64,000 bases of DNA, taken from Thermoanaerobaculia bacterium (GTDB lineage Bacteria > Acidobacteriota > Thermoanaerobaculia > UBA5066 > Gp7-AA6). Location of the stretch: NCBI GenBank assembly GCA_038203955.1, contig JBBRDK010000001.1, positions 4,030 through 68,029 of the forward strand. The letters are read 5' to 3'. Both the position numbers and the translations under genes were made by a program. Positions within the stretch are counted from its first letter, which is position 1, and every line of letters begins with the position of its first letter. The notes beneath the pieces are model-generated. The model did not search any database, was not told where the DNA came from, and saw only the letters and a list, made by a program, of their open reading frames with translations. Positions 276-60,082 of the stretch are shown here, one piece after another.

Positions 276-345
276 GACTCTCGACTCTCGACTCTCGACT
301 CTCGACTCTCGACTCTCGACTCTCGACTCTCGACTCTCGACTCTC
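276..345. repeat. Perfect tandem array (GACTCTC)x10, followed by AACTTCCC
   Basis: Counted directly: 70 nt gives 10 identical 7-nt units. It lies between the convergent mpg stop (238) and the GGDEF gene stop (355). Confidence 0.97.
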
Positions 346-354
346 AACTTCCCG

Positions 355-2634
355 TCAGTGCGAGATCGGCGGGGGCATCGGGCTCGTCGAAGTCGCGACG
401 ACCGCATTCTTCCCGCCTCGCTTGGCGCGGTAGAGCGCCGCGTCCGCCCGGTCGATGAGCTCCTTCTTGTTGCGGGCGTCGTGCGGGAAGGTCGCGATGC
501 CGATCGAGACGGTCGCCCGGACGATCTCGTTCGTGTCGGGAGGCCGGAAGAGCCGCTCGTCGATCCGCGTGCGCACTCGCTCGGCGACCTCGGCCGCTTC
601 GTCGGAGGGCGTCTCAGGGAGGACGACGGCGAACTCCTCCCCGCCGTACCGGGCGACCAGATCCATGTCGCCGCGGACCTCGTTGCGGATCTCTGCGACG
701 ATCCGCTGCAGGATGGCGTCGCCGACCGGATGGCCGTAGCTGTCGTTGATCGACTTGAAGTCGTCGATGTCGAGCAGCAGGACCGACAGGGGCCGTCCCC
801 GGCGTTCGGCGCGGCCGATCTCCTTCTGCAGCGACTCCTGGAAGTAGCGGTGGTTGTAGGCTCCCGTGAGGCCGTCGCGGATGCTCTGCTCCCGCGCGTC
901 CGTGTACGACCGCGCGATCTCGATCGCGGTCACGGCCTGGTTCGCAAAGATCTCGAGCGCGCGCACGGTGTCGAGGCTGGGCGACTGCCCGTTCTTCGGG
1001 TCGTCCACGCGAAGGCATCCCACGAGACGCTCGCCCGAGACGAAGGGGATCCAGAGGGTCTCGTGCGCTCTCCAGGCATTCGGGCCCGCGCGCCGGTTGA
1101 TGCGACTGACGAGGCTGTCGGTGAAGCCGTGCTCGCCGGGCGTCCGCTGCCGCAGGTGATACGACTTGGAGACCCGGTTCTCCTCGGTCCAGTTGCGCGT
1201 GATGTCGCCGGCCGGAATCTCGCGTCCCTTCATTTCGTCCCATTTGCGATCGAGGCCGAAATGCGCGTGGTGCACGAAGGCGTTCCGGTCCGGCTCGTAG
1301 ACGGAGAGAAGGACGGCGTTGAAGCCGAGACTGCGGCCCGCCGCGTTGACGATCGTCTGGAAAAGGGCCTCGAGGTTCAGGTGCTTCTTGAGCTCGTTGG
1401 AGATCTCCAGGACCTGGTTCAGCGTCTCCGCGCGCTCGCGGTTCCGGTCGGAGAGCTCCTGGAGCTGGGCGCGGATGGCCCGGTCCTGCAGGACGAGGGC
1501 GATCTGCTCGGCGAGGGTCGAGATCGAGGAAACGGCTGGCCGCGCATGGATCGATCGGAAGGCGCTCTCCAGGATGAGCACCCCCGTGTTGAGCTCGTAG
1601 GTCGACAGCCGCGCGATCAGCTGGTGAGCCGGGCCCGCGATGAGACGGATCTCCCGGTCTTCGTCCGATCGCCGCTCCACCGCCTCCGTCGTGGTATCGA
1701 TCGCGCGCTCGTCGAGTCGGTTCTCCCGCACCCACGCGGCGACCGCCTCCGGCGAGGTGCTCACGTCGCCGGCGACGTGGATCGCCACCTCCTTCGAGGA
1801 CTCGTCCGTCCACTCGATGATCGCCATCGCCTGGATCGGTAGCAGCCGCCTCAGGGCCTCGAAGATCCGCTGGTACCGGTCGCCGCGCCCGCCGACCGAG
1901 AAGATGTTGGCGATCTCCCGAAGGACGTCGAGCTGCCGGTTCTCGCGCTCCACCTCGTGGTACTTCTCCTCGACGGACGAGAACCCGCGCACCACGAAAG
2001 ACGCGAGAACGACGGGGAAGAAGGCGAGAAGCACCCCCGGAATCCCGTAGTGGGGGTAGACGAGGATCTCCAGCGCCACGATCGGGCTCAGGAGCATCAG
2101 CGTGACCAGCTGAAAGAGCCCCATCTCGAGGAGCTGTTCGCGCGGGACGCGCCGCGAGACGTCGAGGTACGCGAACACCAGCAGCGTGTTGACGAAGAAG
2201 AAGACCAGGAGAATCCCCGCGGCCTCCGCCGCGACCGTGACCGGCCCGCCGCCCACCCGGTGCACGGCCCGGAAGAACACGGCCGCGATCCCGTACGAGA
2301 GGCTGATCTGAGAGAGGTCGAAGGCCGAAGACAGTGTGAAGCGGCGGTTGCGCCGCAGCACCTTCGCCAGAAGATCCGCAGCCGCGCAGATGAGAATGAC
2401 GGCCGCGGGTGACTGGAGCAGAAGGATCGCGGGGACCAGCGCCGCGGCTTCGACGCCCAGGTAGTTGCCGGCGTACCGGACGCGCAGGCGAAAGGCGAGC
2501 GCCGCCAGGATCGCGAAAAAGGCCATCTCGAGCGCGTGCCCCGGCGTCATGGTCGGCAGCTCCACGACCAGGAGCAGCAGGACCGCGATCGGCGTCCCGA
2601 TCTCCAGAATCTTCAGCGCACGCGATCGGGTCAT
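355..2634 (-). CDS. Membrane-anchored GAF-domain diguanylate cyclase (GGDEF)
   Basis: 759 aa. The N-terminal ~220 aa are hydrophobic multi-TM, the central region is GAF-like, and the C-terminal GGDEF domain has RYGGEEFAVVLPE and DDFKSINDSYGHPVGD. Confidence 0.85.
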   Translation of the reverse strand: MTRSRALKILEIGTPIAVLLLLVVELPTMTPGHALEMAFFAILAALAFRLRVRYAGNYLGVEAAALVPAILLLQSPAAVILICAAADLLAKVLRRNRRFTLSSAFDLSQISLSYGIAAVFFRAVHRVGGGPVTVAAEAAGILLVFFFVNTLLVFAYLDVSRRVPREQLLEMGLFQLVTLMLLSPIVALEILVYPHYGIPGVLLAFFPVVLASFVVRGFSSVEEKYHEVERENRQLDVLREIANIFSVGGRGDRYQRIFEALRRLLPIQAMAIIEWTDESSKEVAIHVAGDVSTSPEAVAAWVRENRLDERAIDTTTEAVERRSDEDREIRLIAGPAHQLIARLSTYELNTGVLILESAFRSIHARPAVSSISTLAEQIALVLQDRAIRAQLQELSDRNRERAETLNQVLEISNELKKHLNLEALFQTIVNAAGRSLGFNAVLLSVYEPDRNAFVHHAHFGLDRKWDEMKGREIPAGDITRNWTEENRVSKSYHLRQRTPGEHGFTDSLVSRINRRAGPNAWRAHETLWIPFVSGERLVGCLRVDDPKNGQSPSLDTVRALEIFANQAVTAIEIARSYTDAREQSIRDGLTGAYNHRYFQESLQKEIGRAERRGRPLSVLLLDIDDFKSINDSYGHPVGDAILQRIVAEIRNEVRGDMDLVARYGGEEFAVVLPETPSDEAAEVAERVRTRIDERLFRPPDTNEIVRATVSIGIATFPHDARNKKELIDRADAALYRAKRGGKNAVVATSTSPMPPPISH

Positions 2635-2659
2635 GGGCGTCGGCCCTGAGTGCGGCAGG

Positions 2660-3787
2660 TCATTTCTTCTTCCAGCGGATGACTTCCTGTTTCGAAAGCG
2701 ACTGGAAGATCATGAGCACCTCGAGCTCCTTGATCGGCGAAATCTTCATGATCGATTTGACGTCCCAGACGCCGTTGATCCGCGAGAGCACGAATCCCTC
2801 GTGCGGCGAGAAGGGGAGCTCCGTCAGCTTCGAAACCGGTATCGCAATTTCCGGAATCCGGTCTCCGGTGATTCCATCCTTCTCGAGCGCCCCCTTGATC
2901 TCCCGCTCCGCCTGCCGGATCGCGTCCGCGGCGCGGCCGTCCGAGGGATCCAGATCCGACGCGACCTTGAACATCCGGTACGCCTTCTGCGGATCATCTT
3001 TCAAATGGGCCTTGCCGCGGGCCAGAAACTGCTCGACTTCGGACTCGGAGCCTCCGGCGCCGACGGCCACGGCCTGGCGCGCGGACCGCGCGATCTGGAC
3101 GAGCCCCATGGTCTCGTTCCGCAGCCCTTCGAAGACGAGTCGGGCGACGTTGAATTCCGCGTTGTGGGTCTGGAGGGCGATCTCCTCGATCGAACGCTGG
3201 CCGTCGATGTAGGGAACGATGAGCTTCTCGCGTTCCGAGAGCTCGTCGATGTTCAAAGGACGCACAATCTGGGGGACCACGGAGTCGTCGGGGACGCGAA
3301 GGCGGATGCGCTGCCACTCGTCGTACCGCCGCAGGCCCTCCATGATGATGCCCGTGACGTCGAGCGACAGCGGCACCATCTTCAAATCGGGCAGCTCTCC
3401 GTCGACGAACTCGAAGCTGCCCTCTTCCCAAAGGAAGACGTCGTAGATCGACTCCTCGGCCTTCTTGCGCATCAGCCGCAGCAGGTCGGTCTCCGAGATG
3501 GCGTTGATCATGACGAGGATCTTGCCGAGAAGGATGTTCGATTCCTCCTGGACCTCCATCGCCATCTTGAGCTCTTCCTCGGTGATGTAGCCGTGGGACA
3601 CGAGGAAGTGCCCCAGGTATTCCCGCTGGTCCGATGAGGAGGAGGAGTTGATCCGGCCATTCTGGAAGTAGATTCTCTTTTCGACCCCGTGGCCGTTGAT
3701 GAGCAAAGTTCCGGTCTTCTGGCCGAGAGACAGCCATTGGAGCAGCTCGGAGAGCTGCATCGTTCTGAGATTGCCGGTGATTCCCAC
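2660..3787 (-). CDS. DUF4388 (PatA-N-like) domain protein with a helical-repeat C-terminus
   Basis: 375 aa. The N-terminus GNLRTMQLSELLQWLSLGQKTGTLLINGHGVEKRIYFQNGRI matches the DUF4388 signature as I remember it. The start codon is GTG. Confidence 0.7.
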   Translation of the reverse strand: MGITGNLRTMQLSELLQWLSLGQKTGTLLINGHGVEKRIYFQNGRINSSSSSDQREYLGHFLVSHGYITEEELKMAMEVQEESNILLGKILVMINAISETDLLRLMRKKAEESIYDVFLWEEGSFEFVDGELPDLKMVPLSLDVTGIIMEGLRRYDEWQRIRLRVPDDSVVPQIVRPLNIDELSEREKLIVPYIDGQRSIEEIALQTHNAEFNVARLVFEGLRNETMGLVQIARSARQAVAVGAGGSESEVEQFLARGKAHLKDDPQKAYRMFKVASDLDPSDGRAADAIRQAEREIKGALEKDGITGDRIPEIAIPVSKLTELPFSPHEGFVLSRINGVWDVKSIMKISPIKELEVLMIFQSLSKQEVIRWKKK

Positions 3788-6573: not shown

Positions 6574-8895
6574 ATGGGGAGGCGATTCACATCGGGCTCG
6601 CGGGGCCTTCTGCGCGAGACGCTTTTCGCCTTTCTCTTCTTCGCGGCCGCCGCGGTGCTGTTCACCTGGCCGCTGGCCGCCCGGCTGACGGACGGAATGG
6701 TCGACATCTGGGACGGAAAGCTGACGGCGTGGATCTTCCACTGGGACTTTCACCAGATATTTCGAGATCCTCTGCGGCTTTTCGAAGCGAACATTTTTCA
6801 TCCGGCTCGATATGCACTGGCGTTTTCCGAGAATCTGTTCGGAGCGGCGGTGTTCGGATTTCCGCTCTACGCTCTGGGTGCTTCGAGTCTCTTCGCCGGC
6901 AACGTCCTGCTGCTCGCCGGAATGGCTCTGTCCGGCGTCGCGGGCTGGGCGTTGGCTCGAGAAGTCACGGGGGACTCCGCCGCCTCCCTTCTGGGGGGCG
7001 TCGTCTATGCGTTTGTCCCCTGGCGACTCGCCCAGCTTCCGCACGTTCAGTTTCAGTGGGGAGCGTTCCTCGCCCTCCTGCTTCTCTTCCTTCTCCGCTA
7101 CCTGAACCGGGGCGATCGCCGCGACGCTGTTCTCTTCTCGCTCTCGTTCGCCTGGAATGCCCTGACCAACGTGCACTACGCGATTTTTTCCGGCTTTCTC
7201 GTGGCGCTGGTCCTCCTCCACGCTCTCGCCGTCCTGCCGAAACCGGTGTTCAGGAAGCGCTTCGGTGGCGTCGCGCTTTCTCTGATGGCCGCCGTCGTGG
7301 TCGTGCTGCCTTTCTACGTCCCGTACGCGAAGGCGACGCGCCTCTACGGGATGGAGCGTCAAGAGGGAGAGATCGCCTTTTACTCGGCCCATCTCGTCGA
7401 TTTTTTTACGTCGGGGCCCCAGAACAAGCTCTATGCGCCGATTCAGAAGTGGGCGCACCCTGAAGGAGATCTCTTTCCCGGGATCGTCCCTTTCGGGCTC
7501 GCGGCGGCGGCGATCGTTCTCCTGCGCCGCTGGACTCCTGAGCCCGACGTCCGGACGGCCCCCGCCGGGAGGCGGCGCGCCGCGCACGTTTTCGACTGCG
7601 CGATTCTGATCGGGATCCTCCTGTGGGTGCTTCTGCTGGTCCGCGGCCGTCCGAATTTCGGCCCGATGCACGTTCGAGACCCGGGGCGCCTTCTCTTCTT
7701 CGTCTTCCTGCTCCTGGTCGCCCGCGCCCTTCTCGCGTTTCCCGCGCGCTCGCGCTTCGCCGGTCTCGCAGATTTCCTTCGGCGGACCAGGACCGGTTCG
7801 AGGCCGTTTCTGTTTCTGATGCTCTCCGCTCTCGGGGTTCTCGTCGCGCTCGGCACTCGAACGCCCGTGTACCGCTTCCTCGTGCAGTCGGCCGGTCCGG
7901 CGCTGCGGGCGATCCGCGTGCCGGCGCGGGGCATCGTGCTTACCCATCTGGGGCTCGCGGTCCTGGCTTCCTGGGGCCTCGCCATGATCTCTCGGCGCGA
8001 CCGCCGCTGGGCGATTCCGGTGGTGCTCCTTCTGACGGCGGTCGAGTATCGCGCGTCCCCGATCGAGATCTTTTCCGTGAAAGCGGAACCCGCCCCCGTC
8101 TATCGGTGGCTGGCGTCCGTCTCTCTCCCGGGTGCGGCGGTCGAATGGCCGATCAATAACGACATCGAGCCAGAGCACGTCTTCCGGTCGACCACCCACT
8201 GGAAGCCGCTCTTGAACGGGTACTCAGGTTTTGGCCCTCCCACTTACCTGCACATCGCGTCGCTGCTCTCCGGCGAGGCTGTGGACGATCGCGTGTGGGA
8301 TGCGATGCGAGGACTCGGGGCGGCGGTACTCCTTTTCCACCCTGAGGAGACGACGGATGAGGACCGCGCGAAATATCTGGCGGGCCTGCGGCGTGGGATC
8401 GCGCAGGGGCGGCTCGTCCCGCTCGCGTCGTTCACGCGGCCAGGAACGGAGACGCGGGACTTCGTCTTTCGCCTTCAGGGCGTCGCTGCCTTCGACGCGT
8501 CCGTCCCTCGGGCCGCGGCGCTGCATTCGCCGGGCGAGGCTCTGCGCCAGTTGGAGGATCTCGAGCTCCGGCTGGCGCCTCCCTTCGGCGTCGTCGAGCG
8601 GCCGCGCGAGGGGGAGATCGCGGGCTCGGGCTACTGGGCCTTCGGCTGGGCCCTCGACGACTCGGGAATCGCGCGGGTGCGTCTGATCCCCGCCGACGCT
8701 CCTGCCGTCGAGTGCATCGCCCATCAGCCCTTCCCCGGCGTGTCGGCCGCGTATCCCAAAAATCCCGAGTCGGTCCTTCCCGGCTACGGCTGCCCGCTTC
8801 CGGCTCTTCCTCACGGCCCCCAGGTCCTCTCCTTCGAGATCACGGGCCGGGACGGCGGGGTGACGACTCTCCGCCGCGCCATCCGCGTCCCTTGA
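6574..8895 (+). CDS. Large polytopic membrane protein with a C-terminal soluble domain (GT-C/YfhO-like suspected)
   Basis: 773 aa with an ATG start. There are more than 10 hydrophobic segments in the first ~480 aa, followed by a soluble ~290-aa tail. I recognised no catalytic motif. Confidence 0.65.
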   Translation: MGRRFTSGSRGLLRETLFAFLFFAAAAVLFTWPLAARLTDGMVDIWDGKLTAWIFHWDFHQIFRDPLRLFEANIFHPARYALAFSENLFGAAVFGFPLYALGASSLFAGNVLLLAGMALSGVAGWALAREVTGDSAASLLGGVVYAFVPWRLAQLPHVQFQWGAFLALLLLFLLRYLNRGDRRDAVLFSLSFAWNALTNVHYAIFSGFLVALVLLHALAVLPKPVFRKRFGGVALSLMAAVVVVLPFYVPYAKATRLYGMERQEGEIAFYSAHLVDFFTSGPQNKLYAPIQKWAHPEGDLFPGIVPFGLAAAAIVLLRRWTPEPDVRTAPAGRRRAAHVFDCAILIGILLWVLLLVRGRPNFGPMHVRDPGRLLFFVFLLLVARALLAFPARSRFAGLADFLRRTRTGSRPFLFLMLSALGVLVALGTRTPVYRFLVQSAGPALRAIRVPARGIVLTHLGLAVLASWGLAMISRRDRRWAIPVVLLLTAVEYRASPIEIFSVKAEPAPVYRWLASVSLPGAAVEWPINNDIEPEHVFRSTTHWKPLLNGYSGFGPPTYLHIASLLSGEAVDDRVWDAMRGLGAAVLLFHPEETTDEDRAKYLAGLRRGIAQGRLVPLASFTRPGTETRDFVFRLQGVAAFDASVPRAAALHSPGEALRQLEDLELRLAPPFGVVERPREGEIAGSGYWAFGWALDDSGIARVRLIPADAPAVECIAHQPFPGVSAAYPKNPESVLPGYGCPLPALPHGPQVLSFEITGRDGGVTTLRRAIRVP

Positions 8896-8901
8896 GATGC
8901 C

Positions 8902-8947
8902 GGGAAACGGGAAACGGACGCTCCACGCTGAACGCTCAACGCTCAAC
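8902..8947. repeat. Bipartite heptamer array: (GGGAAAC)x2, GGAC, then GCTCCAC GCTGAAC GCTCAAC GCTCAAC, ending in TTCCC
   Basis: Read directly. It sits between the membrane-protein stop (8895) and asnS. Confidence 0.9.
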
Positions 8948-8964
8948 TTCCCTCCGGCACCGCA

Positions 8965-11690: not shown

Positions 11691-11790
11691 AGTTATCAGC
11701 AATCAGTTCTCAGTTCTCAGTGCAGATTTCCTGGCGGGCATCGAGCTGAGGGGACAAACTGAAAACTGAAACTGAGAACTGAAAACTCTT
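11691..11790. repeat. Two inverted heptamer arrays: (TCAGTTC)-type at 11697-11724 and (CTGAAAA/CTGAGAA)-type at 11758-11788
   Basis: TCAGTTCTCAG (left) is the exact reverse complement of CTGAGAACTGA (right). This fills the rimO-ribF intergenic space. Confidence 0.9.
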
Positions 11791-11793
11791 TCA

Positions 11794-37057: not shown

Positions 37058-37094
37058 GCGCTTAACCTTCCGCATTCCGCCTCCCGCCTCCCGC

Positions 37095-41321: not shown

Positions 41322-41329
41322 GGAGAGGC

Positions 41330-41409: not shown

Positions 41410-41445
41410 GAAAGTAGGAGTCTGTCGGGACGGGGCGCGATTCGC

Positions 41446-48782: not shown

Positions 48783-48914
48783 CGGTCCCTCGACGGGACC
48801 GTAAGGGAGCAGGCGGCCGCGCGGGTAACAGCCCATGGCGTAGATAGGGGAGTCGCGCTGAAGGCGCGGGTTCCGGGTGCGCTCGACCCCCGGAATGGAG
48901 CCGTTTTCCGGCTG

Positions 48915-48942
48915 TTGTAGCCCCCGGGGAGTCTGCTACTAT
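48915..48942 (+). promoter_or_regulatory. Sigma70-like promoter TTGTAG-N16-TACTAT upstream of skp
   Basis: -35 at 48915-48920 and -10 at 48937-48942. A ~35-nt leader with SD AAGGAG precedes the ATG at 48985. Confidence 0.3.
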
Positions 48943-48984
48943 TTCGCGTTCTCGCCGCCCACGATTACGTTTAAGGAGCTTGGA

Positions 48985-49674: not shown

Positions 49675-49695
49675 CCGGGGTTTACACTGCCCCTG

Positions 49696-50793: not shown

Positions 50794-50794
50794 C

Positions 50795-51232
50795 GTGGAG
50801 CTCGGAATCCTCGAGATCATGAAGATCCTCCCGCACCGTTATCCCTTCCTGCTCGTCGACCGCATCCTGGAGCTCGAGGCCGGAAAGCGCGTCGTCGGGA
50901 TCAAGAACGTGACGTTCAACGAGGAGTTCTTCCTCGGCCATTTTCCCGGCAACCCGGTGATGCCCGGCGTGCTGATCGTCGAGGCGATGGCGCAGGTCGC
51001 CGGGGTGGGACTTCTCGGCGTCCTTCCGGAAGAGGAGCGCAAGCTGCTGTACCTGACCGGAGTCGACCGGTGCAAGTTCCGCCGCCCGGTCGTGCCCGGC
51101 GACCAGCTCCGTATCGAGGCGGAGATCCTGGCCGTCAAGTCGCGGCTCTGCAAATGCCGCGCGCGCGCCACCGTCGAAGGGGCGCTCTGCGCCGAGGCGG
51201 AATTGACGTCGGCTCTGGTGGCGCGGTCGTGA
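50795..51232 (+). CDS. fabZ: 3-hydroxyacyl-ACP dehydratase FabZ
   Basis: 145 aa with [13 protein letters not shown] and [23 protein letters not shown]. Confidence 0.95.
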
Positions 51233-52008
51233 GCGCCGAGGTCCATGCGACGGCGATCGTCTCGCCGAGCGCGACCCTCGGGGAGGGCGTCGAGGTCGGT
51301 CCGTACGCCGTCGTCGGCGACCACGTGCGCCTCGGAAACGGCACGCACGTCGGCGCTCACGCCAACATCTCGGGGCCGGCGGAGTTCGGCGAAGGGAATC
51401 GGATCTTTCCGCACGCGGTCCTCGGGCTCGAGCCGCAGGACCTGAAGTACCAGGGAGAGCCGACTCGCCTCGTCGTCGGCGCGCGCAACGTCTTTCGAGA
51501 GTTCATGACGGCGCACCGCGGCACGGTGACCGGGCGCGGAGAGACCGTGATCGGCGACGACGGCTACTTCATGTCGTACAGCCACATCGCGCACGACTGC
51601 CGCATCGGGTCCCGCGTCGTGTTCGCCAATTGCGCCGCCCTCGCCGGCCACGTGGACGTGGGCGACCACGCGACTCTCGGGGCGTTCGCGGCGGCGCACC
51701 AGTTCATCCGGATCGGCAACCACGCGTTCGTCGGCGCCTATGCGCAGCTGCGTCAGGACGTGCTCCCGTTCTGCAAGACGGACGGCATCGACGCGACGAC
51801 CTACGGCATCAACGCCATCGGGCTGAAGAGGAGCGGGTTCGAGGACGATCGCATCGAGGCGCTTCAGAAGGCCTACCGGCTCCTGATCAAATCGAAGCTC
51901 AACACGACGCAGGCTCTGGAGCGCATCGCGACGGAGCTTTCGGGGCACCCGGACGTCGACGACCTGGTGCTGTTCATCCGGGGGAGCAAGCGGGGCTTCC
52001 ACAAGTGA
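51229..52008 (+). CDS. lpxA: Acyl-ACP--UDP-N-acetylglucosamine O-acyltransferase
   Basis: The GTG at 51229 overlaps the fabZ stop. It has IHATAIVSP-like hexapeptide repeats, HIAHDC and a C-terminal helical domain. Confidence 0.9.
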
Positions 52009-53000
52009 CGCCGGGGGCGGGCGCGACGGAGGGAGGCCCCTCCGCGCGAGAGGTGCGGGTGGCGGTCGTCGGCGTCGGCCATCTCGGACGCCACCACGCC
52101 CGCATCGCGGCGTCTCTCCGGGGCGTCCGGTGCGTTGGCGTCGTCGACCGGCACCCCGGGCGCGCGCGCGAGGTGGGGGCGGAGTTCGGGGTCCCGGTCC
52201 TCGCGTCCCTCGAGGAAGCCGCCGGCGCCGCCGAGGCCGTCATCATCGCTACGCCGACGGTCAGCCATGCCGAGATCGCCCGAACGCTGCTGGCGCGGGG
52301 CTGCGACGTTCTCGTCGAGAAGCCGATCACGACGACGGTGGGGGAGGCCGACGCGTTGCTCGCGGAGGCGCGCGCTCGAGGCCGGGTCGTTCAGGTCGGC
52401 CATGTCGAGCGGTACAACCCGGCCGTCCAGGCCGCGCTCGCGCTGGCGGCGGATGTCCGCTTCGTCGAGATGCACCGCCTCGGCATTTTCACGCGCCGCA
52501 GCCTCGACGTCGACGTGGTGCTGGATCTCATGATCCACGACCTGCAGATCGTGCAGGCTCTCGTGGGCAGGCCGGTCGAAGAGGTTCGTGCGGTCGGAAT
52601 GCCGGTGCTCACCTCCACCATCGACATCGCCAACGCCCGCATCGCCTTCGAAGGCGGCTGCGTCGCGGTCCTGACGGCGTCGCGGGTGTCCTCGGACAAG
52701 GTGCGCCGGTGCGAGATCTTCGCGCCCGCCCTCTCCCTGTCCGTCGACATGCAGGCGCAGTCGGTGCGCGCCTATCGATTGTCGCGGGAGACCGGCGAGC
52801 CGGAGATCGTCGGAAGCTCCGTCGCCGTCGAGAGGGAAGAGCCGCTGGCGCGTGAGATCTCGGACTTCGTCCGCGCCGTCCGGGAACGGGCGGCGCCCCT
52901 CGTCTCGGGCGAGGTCGGCCGCGAGGCGCTCGTGCTGGCGTCCCGGGTCCAGGAGGCCATCGAGCGCCAGCGCGCGGTCGCGGAAGGAGTGCGCGTGTGA
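52005..53000 (+). CDS. Gfo/Idh/MocA family NAD-dependent oxidoreductase (GnnA-like position)
   Basis: The GTG at 52005 overlaps the lpxA stop. It has the Rossmann motif VAVVGVGHLGRHHA and the EKP motif (VLVEKPI). Confidence 0.8.
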   Translation: MTPGAGATEGGPSAREVRVAVVGVGHLGRHHARIAASLRGVRCVGVVDRHPGRAREVGAEFGVPVLASLEEAAGAAEAVIIATPTVSHAEIARTLLARGCDVLVEKPITTTVGEADALLAEARARGRVVQVGHVERYNPAVQAALALAADVRFVEMHRLGIFTRRSLDVDVVLDLMIHDLQIVQALVGRPVEEVRAVGMPVLTSTIDIANARIAFEGGCVAVLTASRVSSDKVRRCEIFAPALSLSVDMQAQSVRAYRLSRETGEPEIVGSSVAVEREEPLAREISDFVRAVRERAAPLVSGEVGREALVLASRVQEAIERQRAVAEGVRV

Positions 53001-53863
53001 AGAGAAAACCGGCCCGGGTCGGCCTGATCGGCGGAAGCGGCGTCTACGACCTGTCTGGAATCGAAGACCTCAGTGAGGAGAAGGTCGAAACGCCGTTCGG
53101 CCAGCCGTCAGACTCCTACTTCACGGGCACGCTCGGGGGAGTCGCGGTCGCGTTCTTCTCGCGGCACGCCCGCGGCCACAAGTTCTCGCCGACCGAGATC
53201 AACTACCGGGCGAACATCTGCGGCTTCAAGATGCTCGGCTGCGATGCCCTCTTTTCGGCGTCCGCGGTCGGCAGCCTGCGGGAGGAGATTCTACCGCGGC
53301 ACGCCATGGTGCCCGATCAGTTCATCGACCGCACCCGGCACCGCGCCGACACGTTCTTCGACCGGGGCATCGTGGCGCACGCCGGCTTCGCCGACCCGGT
53401 CTGCCCCTCCCTCGCGGACGCCCTCGAAGCGAGCGCGAAGGAGTCCGGCATCGCCGTGCGCCGGGGAGGCACCTACGTGTGCATCGAGGGGCCGCAGTTC
53501 TCGACTCGCGCGGAGTCGCGGCTCTACCGCTCGTGGGGCGCCGACGTGATCGGGATGACGAACCTGACCGAGGCGCGGCTGGCGCGGGAGGCGGAGCTCT
53601 GCTACGCGACTTTGGCGCTCGTCACGGACTACGACTGCTGGCGCGATGCCGAGGAGCCCGTCACCGTGGAAGCGATCCTCGCGGTGCTGTCCGAGAACGC
53701 GACCGGAGCGAGGCGCGCGATGCGGGCCGCCGTGGCCAAAGTCTCGGCGGACCGCAACTGCGGCTGCCGGGACGCGATGCGGTATGGAGTCCTGACCGAC
53801 CGCAAGGCGCTCTCCGAGGAGACGCGCCGGCGGCTGGCGCCGATCGCGGGGCGGTACCTCTGA
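52997..53863 (+). CDS. mtnP: S-methyl-5'-thioadenosine phosphorylase
   Basis: The GTG at 52997 overlaps the upstream stop. It has VGLIGGSGVYDL, TPFGQPSD, SRHARGHKFSPTEINYRANI and GMTNLTEARLAREAE. Confidence 0.85.
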   Translation: MKRKPARVGLIGGSGVYDLSGIEDLSEEKVETPFGQPSDSYFTGTLGGVAVAFFSRHARGHKFSPTEINYRANICGFKMLGCDALFSASAVGSLREEILPRHAMVPDQFIDRTRHRADTFFDRGIVAHAGFADPVCPSLADALEASAKESGIAVRRGGTYVCIEGPQFSTRAESRLYRSWGADVIGMTNLTEARLAREAELCYATLALVTDYDCWRDAEEPVTVEAILAVLSENATGARRAMRAAVAKVSADRNCGCRDAMRYGVLTDRKALSEETRRRLAPIAGRYL

Positions 53864-53919
53864 GCGCCTCCGAGCCCGCATCCGGGGCCGCGGATCTGCG
53901 CCTGCGGCCCGGCCGCGTC

Positions 53920-54885
53920 GTGGTCACCGGATCGGTCGCGTTCGACTACCTCATGACGTTCCCAGGCCACTTCGTGGAGCACCTGATCCCCGACCAGCTC
54001 TCCCGGCTGTCGGTCTCCTTCCTGGTGGACGAGATGCGCCGGGTCGAGGGCGGATGCGCGGCCAACATCGCGTACGGGCTCGCGCTCCTCGGCGAGCGCC
54101 CTCTGCTTTTCGCGACCGCCGGACCCGACGCCGAGGCCTACCGCGACCGCCTCGGAAAGGAGGGCGTGGACGTCTCCGGGCTGAAGCTGTGCCCGGACGT
54201 GTTCACGGCGTCCTTCTTCGTGTCGACGGACCTCGACCAGAATCAGATCGCTTCTTTCTACACGGGCGCGATGGCACGGGCCCGGGACCTGTCGATCGCG
54301 GCGCTCGACGCGTCCGACTGCGCGGTTGTGCTGATCTCCCCGAACGATCCGGAGGGGATGGCGCGGTACGCGCGGGAGTGCCGGTCGGGCGGGATTCCCT
54401 TCATCTACGACCCGAGCCAGCAGGTGGCCCGCTTGACCGGGGAGGATCTCGCCCGGGGGCTCGAAGGGGCGGCCATCCTGATCGCCAACGACTACGAAAT
54501 GGGGATCCTCACGCAGAAGACCGGTTGGACGGCGCCCGAGATCGAGGCCCGGGTCCCGGTCGTGATCGAGACTCACGGGGCGGAGGGCTCGACGATCGTT
54601 CTCTCGGGCCGGGAGCGCCATCGCATTCCGGCCGCCCGTCTCGAAGGGGACGCCCTCGACCCGACCGGGGTGGGCGACGCGTTCCGCGGCGGCCTCGTGC
54701 GGGGAATACGCGCGGGCTTGTCCTGGGAGATCGCCGGCCGGATGGGAAGCATCGCAGCGGTCTTCGGCCTGGAAGCGCAGGGCCCCCAGCCGCCGCGCTA
54801 CCCGATCGCGCGCTTCATAAAGCGCTACGAATCCAACTTCGGCAAAGAACCGGAACTGGAGACTCTGCGGAGAAATCAGCCTTAG
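53920..54885 (+). CDS. PfkB-family carbohydrate/nucleoside kinase (adenosine kinase-like)
   Basis: The start is uncertain; GTG 53920 was chosen. It has VVVTGSVAFDYL, GGCAANIAYGLALLG and the C-terminal DPTGVGDAFRGG anion-hole motif. Confidence 0.75.
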   Translation: MVTGSVAFDYLMTFPGHFVEHLIPDQLSRLSVSFLVDEMRRVEGGCAANIAYGLALLGERPLLFATAGPDAEAYRDRLGKEGVDVSGLKLCPDVFTASFFVSTDLDQNQIASFYTGAMARARDLSIAALDASDCAVVLISPNDPEGMARYARECRSGGIPFIYDPSQQVARLTGEDLARGLEGAAILIANDYEMGILTQKTGWTAPEIEARVPVVIETHGAEGSTIVLSGRERHRIPAARLEGDALDPTGVGDAFRGGLVRGIRAGLSWEIAGRMGSIAAVFGLEAQGPQPPRYPIARFIKRYESNFGKEPELETLRRNQP

Positions 54886-54915
54886 GTCCCGACCGAGATC
54901 TGTAGTCTTCCTTTC

Positions 54916-55038
54916 GATTCCCGATTCCCGATTCCCGATTCCCGATTCCCGATTCCCGATTCCCGATTCCCGATCTAGTTGACCGCGGAGTACCGCGGCC
55001 GTCTCGCTCCCGTTGGTCGCTCGGCTCCCGTTTCCCGG
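54916..55038. repeat. Composite element: (GATTCCC)x8, a 59-bp unique core, then GTTTCCCGG
   Basis: The eight perfect units are at 54916-54971. The core at 54972-55030 is identical to 59425-59483. Confidence 0.95.
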
Positions 55039-55116
55039 CCGTGCCCCGGCAGGTGCTAACATCCTCCCTCTTCAAAGAGGATCCGATCCTTGAACAGCCG
55101 TCGTGTCGTCCGCGGT

Positions 55117-55590
55117 ATGGGCCCAGCCCTCTTCGCCCGGGAGGTCGAGGGGGAGGCTGACGCGTCGAAGCTGCGGATCACGGTCGTGTGCGCCCGCTGG
55201 AATCCGACCGTCACGGACGCTCTTCTCTCCTCCGCGCTCGGAGCCCTCGCGGAATGCGGCGCGAAGCCGGGGAACGTGATGGTCGTCCGTGTCCCGGGCG
55301 CCTTCGAGCTGCCGGCCGCTTCCCGCCTCGCTCTCGCCTCGAAGACCTGCGATGCCGTCGTCGCTCTCGGGGCGATCGTGCGCGGCGAGACCACTCATCA
55401 CGAGGTCCTGGGAAATGCCGTGGGCGCTGCGCTCGCGTCTCTCTCCGCGGAGACGGGCCGGCCGATCGGATTCGGCCTGTTGACCTGCGAAACCATGGAA
55501 CAGGCCCGGGCCCGCACGGGCAAGGGCGCGGAAGCGGCGGAGGCGGCGGTCGAGATGGCCAACCTCCGGCGCCGGATGCGGGCGAGCTGA
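55117..55590 (+). CDS. ribH: 6,7-dimethyl-8-ribityllumazine synthase
   Basis: ATG 55117 is preferred over TTG 55090. It has RITVVCARWNPTVTDALLSSAL, VPGAFELP and LGAIVRGETTHHE. Confidence 0.9.
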   Translation: MGPALFAREVEGEADASKLRITVVCARWNPTVTDALLSSALGALAECGAKPGNVMVVRVPGAFELPAASRLALASKTCDAVVALGAIVRGETTHHEVLGNAVGAALASLSAETGRPIGFGLLTCETMEQARARTGKGAEAAEAAVEMANLRRRMRAS

Positions 55591-56012
55591 TGGGGGCGCG
55601 GCGCAAGGCGCGGGAGCTCGCGCTCCAGATGCTTTTCGAGAACGACGTGGCCGGCACCGCTCCCCAGGAGATGTTCGACCGCAGCTCGGACCTGCAGAAG
55701 GCGTCCGCGACACTGCGCGATTTCACCGAGCGGCTCGTTTCCGGGACGCTGACCCGCCGCGAAGAGCTCGACGAGATCATCACCCGGCAGGCGGACCACT
55801 GGCGCCTGGCCCGCATGCCGATCGTCGATCGCAACATCCTGAGGCTCGCCCTCTTTGAGCTCCTCCACGAGCCGGCCACCCCGCGGCCCGTGGTGATCGA
55901 CGAAGCGCTCGAAATCGCCAAGCGGTTCTCCACACCCCGGTCCTCGCAGTTCATCAACGGCATCCTGGACGGGGTGCTGAAGTCCCGGCCCGGCGAAGGT
56001 CCGGCGGCGTGA
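55590..56012 (+). CDS. nusB: Transcription antitermination factor NusB
   Basis: The ATG at 55590 overlaps the ribH stop (TGATG). It has RRKARELALQMLFE, DRNILRLALFELL and INGILDG. Confidence 0.9.
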   Translation: MGARRKARELALQMLFENDVAGTAPQEMFDRSSDLQKASATLRDFTERLVSGTLTRREELDEIITRQADHWRLARMPIVDRNILRLALFELLHEPATPRPVVIDEALEIAKRFSTPRSSQFINGILDGVLKSRPGEGPAA

Positions 56013-56785
56013 CCGGGCGCGCCGGCGCCCTGTTCGCCTGCGCCCTCGGGATCGCCGGAATCGCGGGAATCGCCGGAGCGGGGGAGCAGTCCGCCGCGTA
56101 CCGCGCGTCGGGAACGGACGCGCGCCTGTTCGATCAGTACGACAACGACGGGTATTCGATGGCGGTCGTCGCCATGGAAGGCTCGCTCGAGCTGCGCGTG
56201 CGCGTCTCGGATGCCCCTCTCGAGAGCTCCGCTCCGTTTCCGACGGGCGCAAGGCGCGAGACGACGCTCCCGCCAGCGCCGGACCGCGACGCGTTCGCGG
56301 CGCGCCTCGCTCAGGGCAGCCGCACCGCCGCCGAGGCGGTGCGCCGGGTCCTGTTCGGCGTCGCCTCGGAGATCCGGTACGACCCGGACCGCCTGCGCAA
56401 TCAGGAGCCGGCCGCGGTCTTCGCTTCGAAGCGCGCGTACTGCGTGGGATTCAGCGAGCTCGCGGTCGACCTGCTCCGGAGACTCTCGATCCGGGCGCGC
56501 ACGGTCCAGGGCGTGCTGCGCGCGGACCCCGGCGCCGATCGATACGACCCGCAGATCGAAGGCGTCTATCACCGGTGGATCGAGGTCTTCTATCCCGACC
56601 GCGGCTTCGTGTTCTCGGATCCCGCCGGATCGGTCAACGGGGTGGACGCGCGCTACCTTCCGTTCGACCGCCGCTCCCTCCGCCGGCCGCGCGCGCTCCG
56701 GCTCGAGGGACTGGAGTCCCCGGCCGGCGCGCTCGCATACGAGACCGTCCGGGCCGGGAAAGCGACGCTCCGTATTCGGAGATAG
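56009..56785 (+). CDS. Transglutaminase-like cysteine protease domain protein (secreted)
   Basis: The GTG overlaps the nusB stop. It has a signal-like N-terminus and the Cys-His-Asp core KRAYCVGFSELAVDLL...YHRWIEVFYPDRGFVFSDP. Confidence 0.7.
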   Translation: MTGRAGALFACALGIAGIAGIAGAGEQSAAYRASGTDARLFDQYDNDGYSMAVVAMEGSLELRVRVSDAPLESSAPFPTGARRETTLPPAPDRDAFAARLAQGSRTAAEAVRRVLFGVASEIRYDPDRLRNQEPAAVFASKRAYCVGFSELAVDLLRRLSIRARTVQGVLRADPGADRYDPQIEGVYHRWIEVFYPDRGFVFSDPAGSVNGVDARYLPFDRRSLRRPRALRLEGLESPAGALAYETVRAGKATLRIRR

Positions 56786-56878
56786 GTCGACCGGAAACCC
56801 TCCCCGACTCTGCCCAAACCCGGGACGGGAGAGGATTGCGCGTTAGCCTCTATCGCGCAGCGAGCGGGTGCGACGGAG

Positions 56879-56884
56879 TATATT
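56879..56884 (+). promoter_or_regulatory. -10-like hexamer TATATT, 12 nt upstream of the leuS ATG
   Basis: TATATT at 56879-56884. There is no SD before the ATG at 56897. Confidence 0.3.
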
Positions 56885-56896
56885 GGCCGGCCCGAC

Positions 56897-59374
56897 ATGG
56901 CGGAAAGATACGACCCGATCGAGCTGGACAGGAAGTGGCAGCGCCGCTGGGAAGACGCCGGCGTTGCCTTCGTCGACACGTCCGACGGCGCGGACAAGTT
57001 CTACATGTTGAACATGTTTCCCTATCCCTCCGGAAGCCGTCTCCACGTCGGGCATGGCCGCAACTACATTCTCGGCGACGCCCTCTACCGGCGGGAGAGG
57101 ATGGCGGGCCGCCGCACGTTGAACCCGATGGGCTGGGACGCCTTCGGCCTGCCGGCGGAGAACGCCGCCATCGCGGGCGGCGTCCCGCCCCGGGAATACA
57201 CGACCGGCAACATCGCGCGGATGAAGGAGCAGCTGAGGAGTCTCGGCTTGCTCTACGACTGGTCCAAGGAGCTGGCATCGTGCGACCCGGCCTACTACCG
57301 CTGGAACCAGTGGCTCTTCCTCCGGATGTGGGAGCGCGGGCTCGCCTACCGCAAGACGGCTCCCGTGAACTGGTGCCCGGGTTGCCGCACCGTCCTGGCC
57401 AACGAGCAGGTGGTCGACGGCCGCTGCGAGCGCTCGGGAGACGCGGTCGAGATCCGCGACCTCACGCAGTGGTTCTTCCGGATCACGGACTACGCCGAGC
57501 GGCTCCTCGCGGGGCTCGAGACCGTCGAGTGGCCGGAACGCGTCAAGGTCATGCAGCGCAACTGGATCGGGCGGTCGGAAGGCGCGGAAGTGTTCTTCCG
57601 CGTGGACGCGCTGGCGGAGCCCATACCCGTCTTCACGACGCGGCCGGACACGCTCTTCGGCGCGACGTTTCTCGCGCTCGCTCCGGAGCACCCCGCCGCG
57701 GCGCGCCTCGCGCAGCGGTCCCCTTTCTCGGGAGACCTGACGCGTTTCATCGAGCGGGTGCGGCGCAGCTCCCGGCTCGAGCGCGAGTCGGAGACGGGGG
57801 AGAAGGAGGGGATGGACACGGGGATCACCGCGTTGAACCCGGCGACCGGCGAGACGATCCCGGTCTGGCTCGCCAACTTCGTTCTCCCCGACTACGGCAC
57901 CGGCGCGATCATGGGGGTGCCGGCGCACGACCAGCGGGACTTCGAGTTCGCGCGCCGGTACGGGCTTCCGATCCGGCCGGTCTATCGGTCGAACGCTCCG
58001 GACGCTCCCGAGCCCGACCCCGACGCCATGACGTCGGCCGTCCCGCACGGAGGCGTTCTCTACCGGTCCGGCGACTGGAACGGAACGGCAAACGGGCCCG
58101 CCGCGGTCTCGAAGGCGATCGACTGGATCGAGGCGCGCGGACTCGGCCGGGGCCGGGTGGGCTACCGGCTCCGCGACTGGCTCATCTCGCGGCAGCGCTA
58201 CTGGGGAACGCCGATTCCGGCGGTGCATTGTCCCGACTGCGGCGTGCTGCCGGTGCCCGACGACGAGCTCCCGGTCCTTCTGCCCGAAGACGTCGCTTTT
58301 CGCGGAGCGGAAGGAAATCCTCTCGAGCAGTCCGAGGCGTTCGTTGCGACGTCCTGCCCCGGCTGCGGCGGCCCGGCGCGCCGCGAAACGGACACGATGG
58401 ACACGTTCGTAGACTCGTCCTGGTACTACCTCCGTTTCCTAAACCCGGGGGATTCGAGCCGGATGGTCGACTCCGAACGCGCGGCGAAATGGATGCCGGT
58501 CGATCAGTACGTCGGGGGCATCGAGCACGCGATCCTCCACCTCCTCTACGCGCGCTTCATCTGCCGCGTCCTGAAGGACCTCGGTCTGGTGGAGCTCGAG
58601 GAGCCGTTTGCGCGGCTGTTCAACCAGGGAATGATCACAAAGTTGAATCCCGCGTCGGGGAAGATCGAGAAGATGTCGAAGTCGCGCGGCAACACGGTCT
58701 CTCCCGACGAGCTCATCGCCCGGTTCGGAGCGGACACGGTGCGCGTCTACACCCTGTTCATCGGCCCGCCGGAGAAGGAATCGGAGTGGTCGGAGGAGGG
58801 CGTGGCGGGGGCGTGGCGCTTTCTGCAGCGTGTGCACGACGTCTGCGCCCGCGCGGAGGCGCTGCCTGCGGGCGAGCGCGCCGCGGATTCTCCGCTGACG
58901 CGTCTCGCGCACCGGACGATCCAGCGCGTGACCGAAGATGCGCAGCGCTTTCACTTCCACACCGCGGTCGCCGCGCTGATGGAGTTTCAGCGGGGGATGG
59001 CGGAAGCGCTCGACTCGGGCGCCGAGGCTCCCGGCACGGTCCGCTGGGCCGCCGAGACTCTGGCCCAGTTACTTCATCCGGTCGCGCCGCATCTGACGGA
59101 GGAGTGGTGGGAAAGGTTCGGCCACCGCACGTTTCTGCTCGACTCTTCGTGGCCCGCCTTCGACTCCTCACTCGCGACGACGGAGCGGGTCACTCTCGTC
59201 GTCCAGGTCAATGGAAAGGTCCGCGGCCGGCTCGACGTCGAGCGGGGAGCGCCGGAGCCGGACGCCCTCGCCTTAGCGCGCGCCGACGAGAAGATTCGGA
59301 CGTGGATCGACGGGAAGGAGATCGCCCGCACCGTCTACGTGCCCGACCGGCTGTTGAACCTGGTCGTGCGGTGA
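56897..59374 (+). CDS. leuS: Leucine--tRNA ligase
   Basis: 825 aa with the HIGH-type motif (PYPSGSRLHVGHGRNY), the KMSKS motif (KMSKSRGN) and a CP1 editing domain. Confidence 0.95.
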   Translation: MAERYDPIELDRKWQRRWEDAGVAFVDTSDGADKFYMLNMFPYPSGSRLHVGHGRNYILGDALYRRERMAGRRTLNPMGWDAFGLPAENAAIAGGVPPREYTTGNIARMKEQLRSLGLLYDWSKELASCDPAYYRWNQWLFLRMWERGLAYRKTAPVNWCPGCRTVLANEQVVDGRCERSGDAVEIRDLTQWFFRITDYAERLLAGLETVEWPERVKVMQRNWIGRSEGAEVFFRVDALAEPIPVFTTRPDTLFGATFLALAPEHPAAARLAQRSPFSGDLTRFIERVRRSSRLERESETGEKEGMDTGITALNPATGETIPVWLANFVLPDYGTGAIMGVPAHDQRDFEFARRYGLPIRPVYRSNAPDAPEPDPDAMTSAVPHGGVLYRSGDWNGTANGPAAVSKAIDWIEARGLGRGRVGYRLRDWLISRQRYWGTPIPAVHCPDCGVLPVPDDELPVLLPEDVAFRGAEGNPLEQSEAFVATSCPGCGGPARRETDTMDTFVDSSWYYLRFLNPGDSSRMVDSERAAKWMPVDQYVGGIEHAILHLLYARFICRVLKDLGLVELEEPFARLFNQGMITKLNPASGKIEKMSKSRGNTVSPDELIARFGADTVRVYTLFIGPPEKESEWSEEGVAGAWRFLQRVHDVCARAEALPAGERAADSPLTRLAHRTIQRVTEDAQRFHFHTAVAALMEFQRGMAEALDSGAEAPGTVRWAAETLAQLLHPVAPHLTEEWWERFGHRTFLLDSSWPAFDSSLATTERVTLVVQVNGKVRGRLDVERGAPEPDALALARADEKIRTWIDGKEIARTVYVPDRLLNLVVR

Positions 59375-59389
59375 GGGGCGGCCGGGGGC

Positions 59390-59490
59390 CGGAAATCGGG
59401 AGTCCGGACCTCCCTTCGATTCCCGATCTAGTTGACCGCGGAGTACCGCGGCCGTCTCGCTCCCGTTGGTCGCTCGGCTCCCGATTTCCG
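59390..59490. repeat. 101-bp element bounded by a 13-bp perfect inverted repeat (CGGAAATCGGGAG / CTCCCGATTTCCG), containing the 59-bp core
   Basis: The left arm is at 59390-59402 and the right arm at 59478-59490. The core at 59425-59483 is identical to 54972-55030. It lies between the leuS stop and the lptE start. Confidence 0.9.
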
Positions 59491-59508
59491 ATTCCCGGCT
59501 CGCTCCTC

Positions 59509-60003
59509 GTGGTTCTCTTAGCGGCGTCCGCGGCCGGCTGCGGGTACTCGCTCGTCGGGACGAGCTCGACCCTTCCGGCTTCGATCAAAGTGGTTCAATT
59601 CGAGACGCTGCTCAACCAGACGTCGCGCGTCGGGGTCGAGCAGCGACTCTCCCGCGAGATCGCGCGGGAGCTCGCCAGCCGCGGCCGGTTTTCCGTGCAG
59701 TCGGCGGCGGCGGGCGCCGACGCGAGCTTGACGGGAGCCGTGATCGGCTTCGACCTCTATCCGATCGCCTTCGACGAGCAGGGACGGTCCAAGGAATATC
59801 AGGTCCGCATCACCGCGCGAGTCTCCTTGAAGAGCATCGCCGACGAGAAGGTCCTCTGGGAGAACCCGTCCTACTCGTTCCAGGAAAACTACACGTTCTC
59901 TACGAGCGCCGCCTCCTACGTGGATCGGGAGAATGAGGCGATCGAGCGGGTGGCGGAGCGGTTCGCGGAGAGCCTGGTCGCGAACCTGCTGGAAGGGTTC
60001 TAG
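59509..60003 (+). CDS. lptE: LPS-assembly lipoprotein LptE-like
   Basis: It sits in the conserved position after leuS. It has the lipobox-like AASAAGC followed by GYSLVG and LptE-like strands. The only canonical in-frame start is GTG 59509, which gives a very short signal peptide. Confidence 0.55.
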   Translation: MVLLAASAAGCGYSLVGTSSTLPASIKVVQFETLLNQTSRVGVEQRLSREIARELASRGRFSVQSAAAGADASLTGAVIGFDLYPIAFDEQGRSKEYQVRITARVSLKSIADEKVLWENPSYSFQENYTFSTSAASYVDRENEAIERVAERFAESLVANLLEGF

Positions 60004-60004
60004 C

Positions 60005-60082
60005 GAGTTGTCGGTCGTCAGTTTTCAGTTCTGAGTCGCCGGTGTCTCGGATCCCATCCAGATAACTGATAACTGATAACTC
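60005..60082. repeat. Two partly complementary heptamer arrays: (TTNTCRG)x4 at 60008-60035 and (CTGATAA)x3 at 60059-60079
   Basis: Read directly. It lies between the convergent lptE stop (60003) and rpsT stop (60086). Confidence 0.85.

Follow-up and report, generated by a model that had tools for sequence, protein, structure and literature searches.

Why should the gaps of a G+C-rich acidobacterial chromosome hold stretch after stretch of head-to-tail 7-nt units, and do such arrays arise where they stand or spread as elements? We addressed this question on 64,000 nt of a Thermoanaerobaculia chromosome (GenBank assembly GCA_038203955.1, contig JBBRDK010000001.1, positions 4,030 to 68,029), called here the window, which has a GC content of 67%, comes from a soil or sediment acidobacterium and carries clpC-like, bamA and leuS genes. 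Tandem heptamer arrays have been known from cyanobacteria for decades and were subsequently reported from Xanthomonas and sulfur bacteria. A first-pass annotation of the window had described eleven of them, sorted most into three families with conserved ends, argued for an element-like origin rather than random slippage, and proposed a shuffle test of their enrichment and a comparison of orthologous intergenic regions. We found that the arrays are real, specific to a period of seven, clade-wide, intergenic and biased towards the 3' ends of genes, with a small repertoire of units, recurrent ends and a recurrent order, and that the modules are scattered in many copies and differ between close relatives by the gain or loss of whole blocks. 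The reading we favor, to which we give a probability of roughly 0.55, is that these are modular intergenic heptamer repeats resembling the repetitive extragenic palindromic (REP) sequences and bacterial interspersed mosaic elements (BIMEs), spread in blocks and then resized by slippage, some of them acting as 3'-end hairpins.

All eleven stretches were found where they had been placed, and Tandem Repeats Finder gave period-7 arrays at each. Our self-match periodicity scan of the window returned 10 period-7 runs (score of at least 12, 345 bp) against a mean of 0.1 in dinucleotide-preserving shuffles, with no run at any of the periods 4-6 and 8-12, so that the proposed shuffle test showed enrichment in the window. 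The units are, as had been remarked, AT-richer than the 67% GC genome around them (mostly 3-4 G+C of 7), and some arrays have 14-nt higher-order periods. The listed elements cover 837 of the approximately 4185 intergenic bases of the window. Some points of the earlier description had to be amended. Five of the stretches, taken before as single arrays, are composites of two arrays and a non-repetitive spacer (11691-11790, 41330-41409, 54916-55038, 59390-59490, and 60005-60082), and, while the recurrence of a few families held, 32475-32502 belongs to a fourth, CAGCTNT. The elements are as follows.

276-353, no strand assigned: ten GACTCTC units, then AACTTCCC; between convergent genes, ending 1 nt from the stop of a GGDEF gene (355-2634, minus strand).
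8899-8952, plus strand: GCC(GGGAAAC)2 GGAC, four GCTCAAC-type units and TTCCC; begins 3 nt past a stop at 8895.
11691-11790, plus strand: AACTGAN inverted pair, with a TCAGTTN arm at 11691-11725 and an AACTGAN arm at 11755-11790; directly after the TAG of a MiaB-like gene.
28938-28979, plus strand: five AACTGAN units ending in AACTC; the last unit gives CTGACA, 17 nt upstream of TAGAAT.
32475-32502, no strand assigned: four TCAGCTN units of the CAGCTNT family; between two minus-strand genes.
37004-37057, plus strand: GGGAAGTTGAG, then a GTTGAGN array; the TGA (37011-37013) of gene 36543-37013 lies within the leading GGGAAGTTGAGG motif.
37066-37100, plus strand: a CGCCTCC-type array, additional to the eleven; it follows the GTTGAGN array in the same order as in relatives.
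37492-37524, minus strand: GCC and four GGGAAAC units; overlaps the last codons of an HPRT-like open reading frame (ORF; 37475-38065, minus strand), 14 nt upstream of a RidA-like start.
41327-41414, plus strand: GGC(GGGAAAC)4, a 20-nt spacer, GCC(GGGAATC)3, GGAAATC and GAAAG; between lysS and an FtsX-family gene.
54911-55039, plus strand: CTTTC(GATTCCC)8, a 54-nt core (54977-55030) and GTTTCCC GGC; between a pfkB-like gene and ribH.
59390-59499, plus strand: inverted GGAAATC/GGGAGTC units, GATTCCC, a 54-nt core (59430-59483), then GATTTCC GATTCCC GGC; in the lptE 5' region.
60005-60082, no strand assigned: inverted pair of a TCAGTTN arm (60005-60037) and a (GATAACT)3 arm (60059-60082), filling the convergent lptE/rpsT gap.

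The ends of these arrays recur as well as the units. Six array starts had been said to share one sequence; five read GCCGGGAAWC and the sixth is a GGC variant. The motif GCCGGGAAWC occurs 5 times in the window against 0.96 expected, and CAACTTCCC occurs 4 times against 0.32 expected, counts that were reached in 0 of 100 shuffles in both cases. The third end motif, AATCGAARG, occurs 3 times against 1.1 expected, a count reached by 8 of 100 shuffles, which is weak and not significant by itself.

We then compared the window with its relatives. The closest LeuS relatives are metagenome-assembled genomes (MAGs) labelled Acidobacteriota or Thermoanaerobaculia, and the contig of the top match (97% protein identity; GCA_030854005.1, locus L001) has about 90.5% DNA identity to the window over 49679-62056. 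A metagenome scan with LptE found no same-species contigs. The lineage data set consists of 671 kb, the window plus related loci, of which L004-L079 were picked for containing the core; genes were predicted from codon usage, by a method whose output for L001 matches the gene calls supplied with that contig, and the coding share of this DNA is 89%. In these 671 kb period 7 gives 85 runs, and none of the other periods between 3 and 13 exceeds 4; the 51 runs of period 14 are read as the second harmonic. The unit families are GGGAAWC (44 arrays), GTTGAGN/GAGAGTY (about 20), CAGCTNT (14), GGCGGNA (12), AACTGAN (6), and GGGGTNA (6). Among relatives the end motifs are recurrent, not universal: GCC stands before 15 of 54 GGGAAWC arrays, GAAAG, GAAGG, or GAAAA after 15 of the 54, and GGGAAG or GGGAA before about 8 of 22 GTTGAGN arrays. 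The claim of conserved ends is thus narrowed to recurrence. GGGAAWC arrays consist of 2, 3, 4 and 5 units in 23, 11, 10 and 2 cases, respectively, with a mild excess at 4.

The order of the modules was read from intergenic gaps written as strings of family symbols and counted by hand. It runs (GTTGAGN)n, CTTTC(GATTCCC)n, an optional 54-nt core, (GWTTCCC)m, (CGCCTCC)k, and both order and polarity are kept in about 13 of the 16 informative gaps. The window has two examples without the core, one at 37004-37100 and one, reversed, at 8899-8952. Pairs of arrays of the same family within a gap are inverted in about 13 cases and direct in 6. Heptamer arrays were also observed in more distant Thermoanaerobaculia, at loci L081, L083, L093, L094, and L095 (LeuS identity of 77-83% for L093-L095, LptE identity of 73-74% for L081 and L083); those of L081, L083, and L094 are inverted pairs. 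The units in these distant relatives differ (CGTAAAA, AGTCCGA, GTTTCAG, CTGAGAA), so that the 7-nt step is kept and the sequence is not.

Comparison of the composites 54916-55038 and 59390-59490 showed that they have a 74-nt stretch in common, which contains the non-repetitive 54-nt core, AGTTGACCGCGGAGTACCGCGGCCGTCTCGCTCCCGTTGGTCGCTCGGCTCCCG, present in the window in these two copies. A scan of one genome per species with a 23-nt core seed, which gives a lower bound, found at least 76 stretches, all in eight Acidobacteriota/Thermoanaerobaculia MAGs among the matches listed, with at least 28 in a single MAG. When 80 seed-anchored copies were aligned, the 54 positions were nearly invariant; the upstream flank is CYTTTC(GATTCCC)n GATCNAG and the downstream flank (GATTCCC or GTTTCCC)m followed by GGCC or GAC. 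A hidden Markov model (HMM) search of the related-locus DNA added only 17 copies, diverged or partial. The core has a single short hairpin, CCGCGG-AGTA-CCGCGG (6-bp stem, AGTA loop), and a non-palindromic 3' half; loop variants occur among the diverged copies, and two small patches of the core are variable. No covariation between these two spots was seen by eye in the copy table, nor were compensatory changes of the hairpin seen in the HMM-collected copies. Rfam 15 gave no match at the gathering score in the window and only chance-level matches to the core. The core lies in the same orientation as its neighbouring genes in about 24 cases and opposite in about 16 (hand count), which is roughly even.

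Several known kinds of mobile DNA were tried as a description of the core. TCCCGAT borders the core on either side and suggested a target-site duplication, a model that was rejected because the flanks do not match in copies that lack arrays. The core does not fit a miniature inverted-repeat transposable element either: its arms are direct repeats, no target-site duplication is seen and only the copy at 59390-59499 has inverted ends. No REP-associated tyrosine transposase (RAYT) or other gene was found between inverted core pairs, and no gene family recurred beside the cores at the 76 loci. A phage or plasmid vector is not supported, since the core had no match in plasmids or viral contigs and (GGGAATC)4 occurred once in 2.9 million viral contigs.

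Some copies of the core lie in or beside genes. At L017 1380-1520 it is found in opposite orientation and in frame within mutS2, between the MutS_V and Smr domains, and an inverted core pair flanks part of this mutS2 gene; the orthologous locus of a second MAG (L066, about 270-340) has a core too. At L056 1100-1360, truncated copies of tRNA-Arg, reduced to the 5' half, are joined to core copies in a tandem arrangement, and an intact copy of the tRNA-Arg(TCT) gene lies next to them. The core, or its 3' half (repeats of GGTCGCTCGGC), is duplicated in tandem or in part at L010 5444-5530, L018 1276-1412, L022 3795-3900, L063 3115-3216, and L078 4795-4850, which suggests slippage or template switching inside the core as well.

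The comparison of orthologous intergenic regions showed that, at sites with arrays in both the window and L001, copy number, core content or unit differs. At the site of 54916-55038, L001 has CCTTTC GATTCCC (GTTTCCC)3 GGCC, which has the same boundaries, without the core, and one GATTCCC instead of the eight in the window. The 105-nt composite at 59391-59495 (inverted units, arm, core, arm) is missing from L001 and from every more distant relative examined, and it is therefore an insertion in the lineage of the window. It is a stop-free, in-frame insertion of 35 codons in the n-region of the signal peptide of the lipoprotein LptE (ORF 59371-60003), which has 210 amino acids in the window versus 175 in L001. 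The lipobox AAGC of LptE comes after the insertion, whose length of 105 nt is divisible by 3 as well as by 7.

The lptE/rpsT gap holds an inverted array pair in both the window and L001, of different families and lengths, that of L001 belonging to the CAGCTNT family. In L080, L081, L085, L087, and L094 the same gap has inverted heptamer pairs of yet other units, and in the distant relatives L083 and L084 it has a plain GC hairpin followed by TTTC; the outer GAGT...ACTC base of the stem is common to L083 and the window. Core copies at orthologous sites (the gap upstream of a recR-like gene in L049, L071, and L077; the pair L006/L043) are almost identical, while the arrays that flank them are unalignable and the genes next to them have diverged at far more positions. 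The conserved ends, the few families, the placement at gene 3' ends, the core in at least 76 copies and the 105-nt element absent from L001 bear out the first-pass view that the arrays have an element-like origin rather than arising by random slippage.

Two neighbouring sites were also compared. Upstream of ribH, the orthologue of window 54885-55117 in a further relative (L002 5070-5150) has two direct repeats of about 40 nt (GAGAGAGCGCnTCGCTTGnAACAATGnGGAGAACCC) and no heptamers, and a -10-like TAAGAT/TAACAT is kept at this site in all relatives. Upstream of leuS, L001 has an 84-nt palindromic insert (7092-7175, orthologous to window position ~56858) that the window does not have, and every genome in the comparison keeps TATATTGG a short way ahead of the start of leuS.

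The placement of the arrays relative to genes is strongly uneven. Among 136 arrays, 109 are intergenic, 17 are in called ORFs, mostly at the ORF ends, and 10 are at locus edges. Arrays occur in 44% of the gaps between convergent genes (32/72), in 52 of 409 tandem gaps and in only 6% of divergent gaps (4/68), and many begin at or overlap a stop codon. The G-rich strand of the GGGAAWC arrays is sense in 13 cases and antisense in 12, without orientation bias. The proposal that arrays sit at gene 3' ends or just upstream of promoters held for the 3' ends, while for promoters there is one convincing case only. At many related loci the stops of flanking genes were seen inside or abutting array units, and heptamers with TGA or TAG (for example the TGA in GTTGAGG) place a stop in each of the three frames over 21 nt. 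The C-terminus of the HPRT-like protein may be encoded by the array at 37492-37524. A further array, additional to those first listed, is (CGCCCCG)4.7 at 10306-10338; it lies among the first 23 codons of the MiaB-like ORF, ahead of the UPF0004 domain, and either the true start lies downstream of it or the array is translated. Because elements lie in frame inside genes (lptE, mutS2) or over stop codons, gene calling in such MAGs is affected.

The folding results separated the inverted pairs from the direct arrays. RNA folding of the AACTGAN inverted pair (11685-11800) gave -42.4 kcal/mol with a z score of -4.1, and the pair at 60000-60090 gave a z score of -4.0; at 8899-8960, a stem is closed by the pairing of GGGAA with its complement TTCCC. 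Hairpins in relatives often stretch from stop codon to stop codon across the whole gap. A consensus terminator scan listed no array. Canonical intrinsic terminators were considered for the subset with hairpins and dropped because the hairpin tails are not T-rich.

We explain these data as follows. Modules would be spread or copied as blocks, either through a protein that recognises the core or by template switching or gene conversion with the arms as homology. Once settled, arrays would gain or lose copies, 7 or 14 nt at a time, through replication slippage, and they would persist only where they do no harm, that is, after stops, in operon spacers and between convergent genes. Inverted pairs may act as 3'-end stem-loops for the definition or protection of transcript ends, as REP hairpins do, and may take the place held by a plain GC hairpin in relatives. 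The core may be kept uniform because it is recognised by a mobilising or host protein, or because it is homogenised through the repeat arms.

Several results weigh against this explanation. Convergent gaps with z below -2 make up 41% of those with arrays and 36% of those without, so that there is no overall excess of structure. The long direct arrays, (GATTCCC)8 and (GACTCTC)10, are unusually unstructured (z of +2.0 for 54900-55045), and the 8-nt tails of the hairpins contain 1.3 T on average. For the core we detected neither a transposase nor a terminal inverted repeat nor a target-site duplication, so that we infer its mobility from its distribution alone. The counts of the GGGAAWC family are inflated, since L004-L079 were chosen by core content. 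The 7-nt step is left without explanation, and the only published idea is the polymerase footprint of Mrazek et al.

The most serious rivals are two. Pure local slippage from chance seeds, with an intrinsic preference for 7 nt, would make the families and junctions coincidental or compositional, and nothing would move. Mrazek et al. (2007), as summarised in PMC4692102 and PMC4679880, proposed such a cause: the stretch of DNA that the polymerase holds would have a length that favours slippage. The perfect head-to-tail copies, the 8 versus 1 GATTCCC units at an orthologous site, the 14-nt higher-order periods and the use of other units at the same sites in distant relatives agree with it. It does not account for an identical 54-nt core on the same arms at no fewer than 76 sites, for the recurrent end motifs and fixed module order, or for a whole 105-nt composite inserted where no relative has an array, and we consider it unlikely.

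The arrays could instead be protein-binding sites, covered by a DNA-binding protein that forms a polymer with one subunit on each heptad, for regulation, nucleoid organisation or recombinase recognition. There is a precedent in the ribbon-helix-helix protein omega, which binds 7-10 contiguous WATCACW heptads, direct or inverted, at parS of pSM19035 and needs at least 4 contiguous units (PMC9499535). The even orientation of GGGAAWC relative to transcription (13 same, 12 opposite) fits a role at the DNA level, and the extreme conservation of the core and the mild excess of 4-unit arrays point the same way. The finding that no candidate protein recurs beside the elements, the concentration of arrays after genes with few in the divergent, promoter-bearing gaps, and the free change of units at the same site make this reading improbable.

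A related and more specific idea is that the core and the heptad arms around it serve as cis-sites for a dedicated protein system in Thermoanaerobaculia, a RAYT-like domesticated recombinase or a heptad-polymerising binder, that spreads the modules and makes arrays in 7-nt steps. Two of the units match those of unrelated phyla (GGGAATC of Xanthomonas; TAACTGA of Beggiatoaceae and cyanobacteria), and with about 1200 possible heptamer classes coincidence is unlikely. We regard this idea as speculative and rather unlikely to be correct; if it were, units common to distant phyla would point to shared, horizontally moving machinery that makes or binds heptamers, and not to polymerase slippage.

By analogy with the proposal made for GGGAATC in Xanthomonas, the GGGAAWC family might act as a G-quadruplex or i-motif, in DNA or RNA. 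Its unit is identical to one that, according to Rehm et al. (2015; PMC4692102), forms G-quadruplexes in vitro. The family includes (GGGAAAC)4 and (GGGAATC)3-4 at 41327-41414 and 37492-37524, and has a shoulder at 4 units. Two units are nonetheless the commonest length, only 14 of 48 GGGAAWC arrays have at least 4 G-tracts, the G-rich strand is equally sense and antisense, the other families cannot form G-quadruplexes, and the same paper reports no function or regulatory role for the Xanthomonas arrays. Such a role seems very unlikely here.

Tuning of promoters is more doubtful still: TGAC-containing units would supply the -35 box and shift its distance to the -10 box in 7-nt steps. The best sigma-70-like match of the whole window, CTGACA-17-TAGAAT at 28968-28996 (10/12, upstream of a histidine-kinase gene), takes its -35 hexamer from the last unit of the AACTGAN array at 28938-28979, and -35-like hexamers are present in AACTGAC, in the reverse complement of CAGCTGT, in GTTGAGN, and in the core (TTGACC). 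This is a single case, arrays are commonest in convergent gaps and rare in divergent ones, and GGGAAWC and CGCCTCC have no likeness to a -35 box. An assembly artefact is most improbable, for although short repeats are prone to mis-assembly, all arrays are shorter than about 130 nt and the same elements stand at orthologous positions in independent assemblies from different studies.

Modular spread in blocks thus remains the reading we prefer. The lineage shows the heptamer phenomenon in a legible form, with a fixed syntax, a countable core, insertion and replacement events at about 10% divergence, and plain hairpins and heptamer pairs as positional homologues. The core as a probe, the datable insertions and the positional homologues are handles by which slippage can be separated from mobility and the role of 3'-end hairpins can be asked about.

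The other genes of the window, identified by synteny with the gene calls of L001 and by Pfam scans, include skp, lpxD-fabZ-lpxA, ribH-nusB, lptE and rpsT, among others. A repeat of 36-nt period (2.2 copies, 80% matches) followed by a CCG-rich run was observed at 49546-49626, near the 3' end of gene 48877-49674, which has the position of the OmpH/Skp gene in relatives.

Comparison with known systems places the arrays among several repeat classes. The short tandemly repeated repetitive (STRR) sequences of heterocystous cyanobacteria have the units CCCCAGT, TTGGTCA, and CAACAGT. They were offered by the first-pass annotation as the nearest analogue, and they are a fair one, with a period of 7, several unit families per genome and an intergenic location; they are not the closest, and none of their three units is among the canonical units here. 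The REP and BIME sequences of enterobacteria and pseudomonads are short, extragenic and multi-copy, lie after genes or inside operons and rarely in promoters, form hairpins without a U-tract, and are mosaics of modules in a preferred order whose orientation is independent of the flanking genes. The elements described here are likewise extragenic, multi-copy, dispersed, independent of orientation, placed after genes, able to form hairpins without a U-tract, and built as mosaics in a preferred order. They differ in having no GTAG-type head, in stems made of tandem heptamers, and in a core whose 6-bp stem with an AGTA loop is joined to a non-palindromic remainder; no linked RAYT gene was found at the 76 loci. 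The omega/parS arrays have contiguous 7-bp units, direct and inverted, as here, but they are carried on a plasmid, overlap promoters and are bound by a known protein, and their placement is the reverse.

The TAACTGA arrays of Beggiatoaceae, cyanobacteria, and Bacteroidetes (MacGregor 2015; PMC4679880) are intergenic, typically of 2-6 copies, mostly forward, and just upstream of start codons, where they overlap the ribosome-binding site. The GATAACT units at 60061-60081 (three copies) are a rotation of TAACTGA, the AACTGAN family is closely related to it, and the location is again intergenic; unlike the TAACTGA repeats, the arrays here follow stops or lie between convergent genes and mostly form inverted pairs, and their seventh base is variable. 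Mrazek et al. (2007), as summarised in PMC4679880 and PMC4692102, found heptanucleotides to be the commonest class of long simple sequence repeats in most genomes that they examined, notably in large high-GC genomes, and what they counted, tandem 7-nt units beyond chance and enriched in non-coding DNA, is found in this lineage as well.

The closest match is with Xanthomonas. The first-pass annotation knew of no equivalent in high-GC diderms; this was mistaken, since Rehm et al. (2015; PMC4692102) describe heptamer arrays of the GGGAATC type in two Xanthomonas genomes, 186 in one and 183 in the other. According to that paper, about 89-93% of them are intergenic. They lie near the stop of the preceding gene and seldom between divergent genes, and convergent inverted pairs are frequent among them; four units is the preferred number, and at a given intergenic site close relatives differ in the length and sequence of the array. 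Arrays of this type (at least 14 bp, containing GGGAATC, of the form (GGGANTN)n) number 48 in our data set, and in the window they are 41379-41414 and the complements of 54916-54971 and 59490-59499. As described there, the two systems share the GGGAATC unit (with a GGGAAAC variant here), a high-GC diderm host, about 90% intergenic placement close to upstream stops, depletion in divergent gaps, inverted pairs, strong variation between relatives, and the frequency of 4-unit arrays (a mild excess here). They differ in phylum, ours being Acidobacteriota, in the coexistence of several unit families joined in a fixed order and in the 54-nt core between the arms; the comparison is by description, and the account on which we rely mentions no core. 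Within the literature searched, no account of such repeats in Acidobacteria turned up. The arrays thus extend heptamer repeats of an already described kind to a further phylum, and what is new here is the fixed order and orientation of the modules together with a highly conserved, dispersed 54-nt core.

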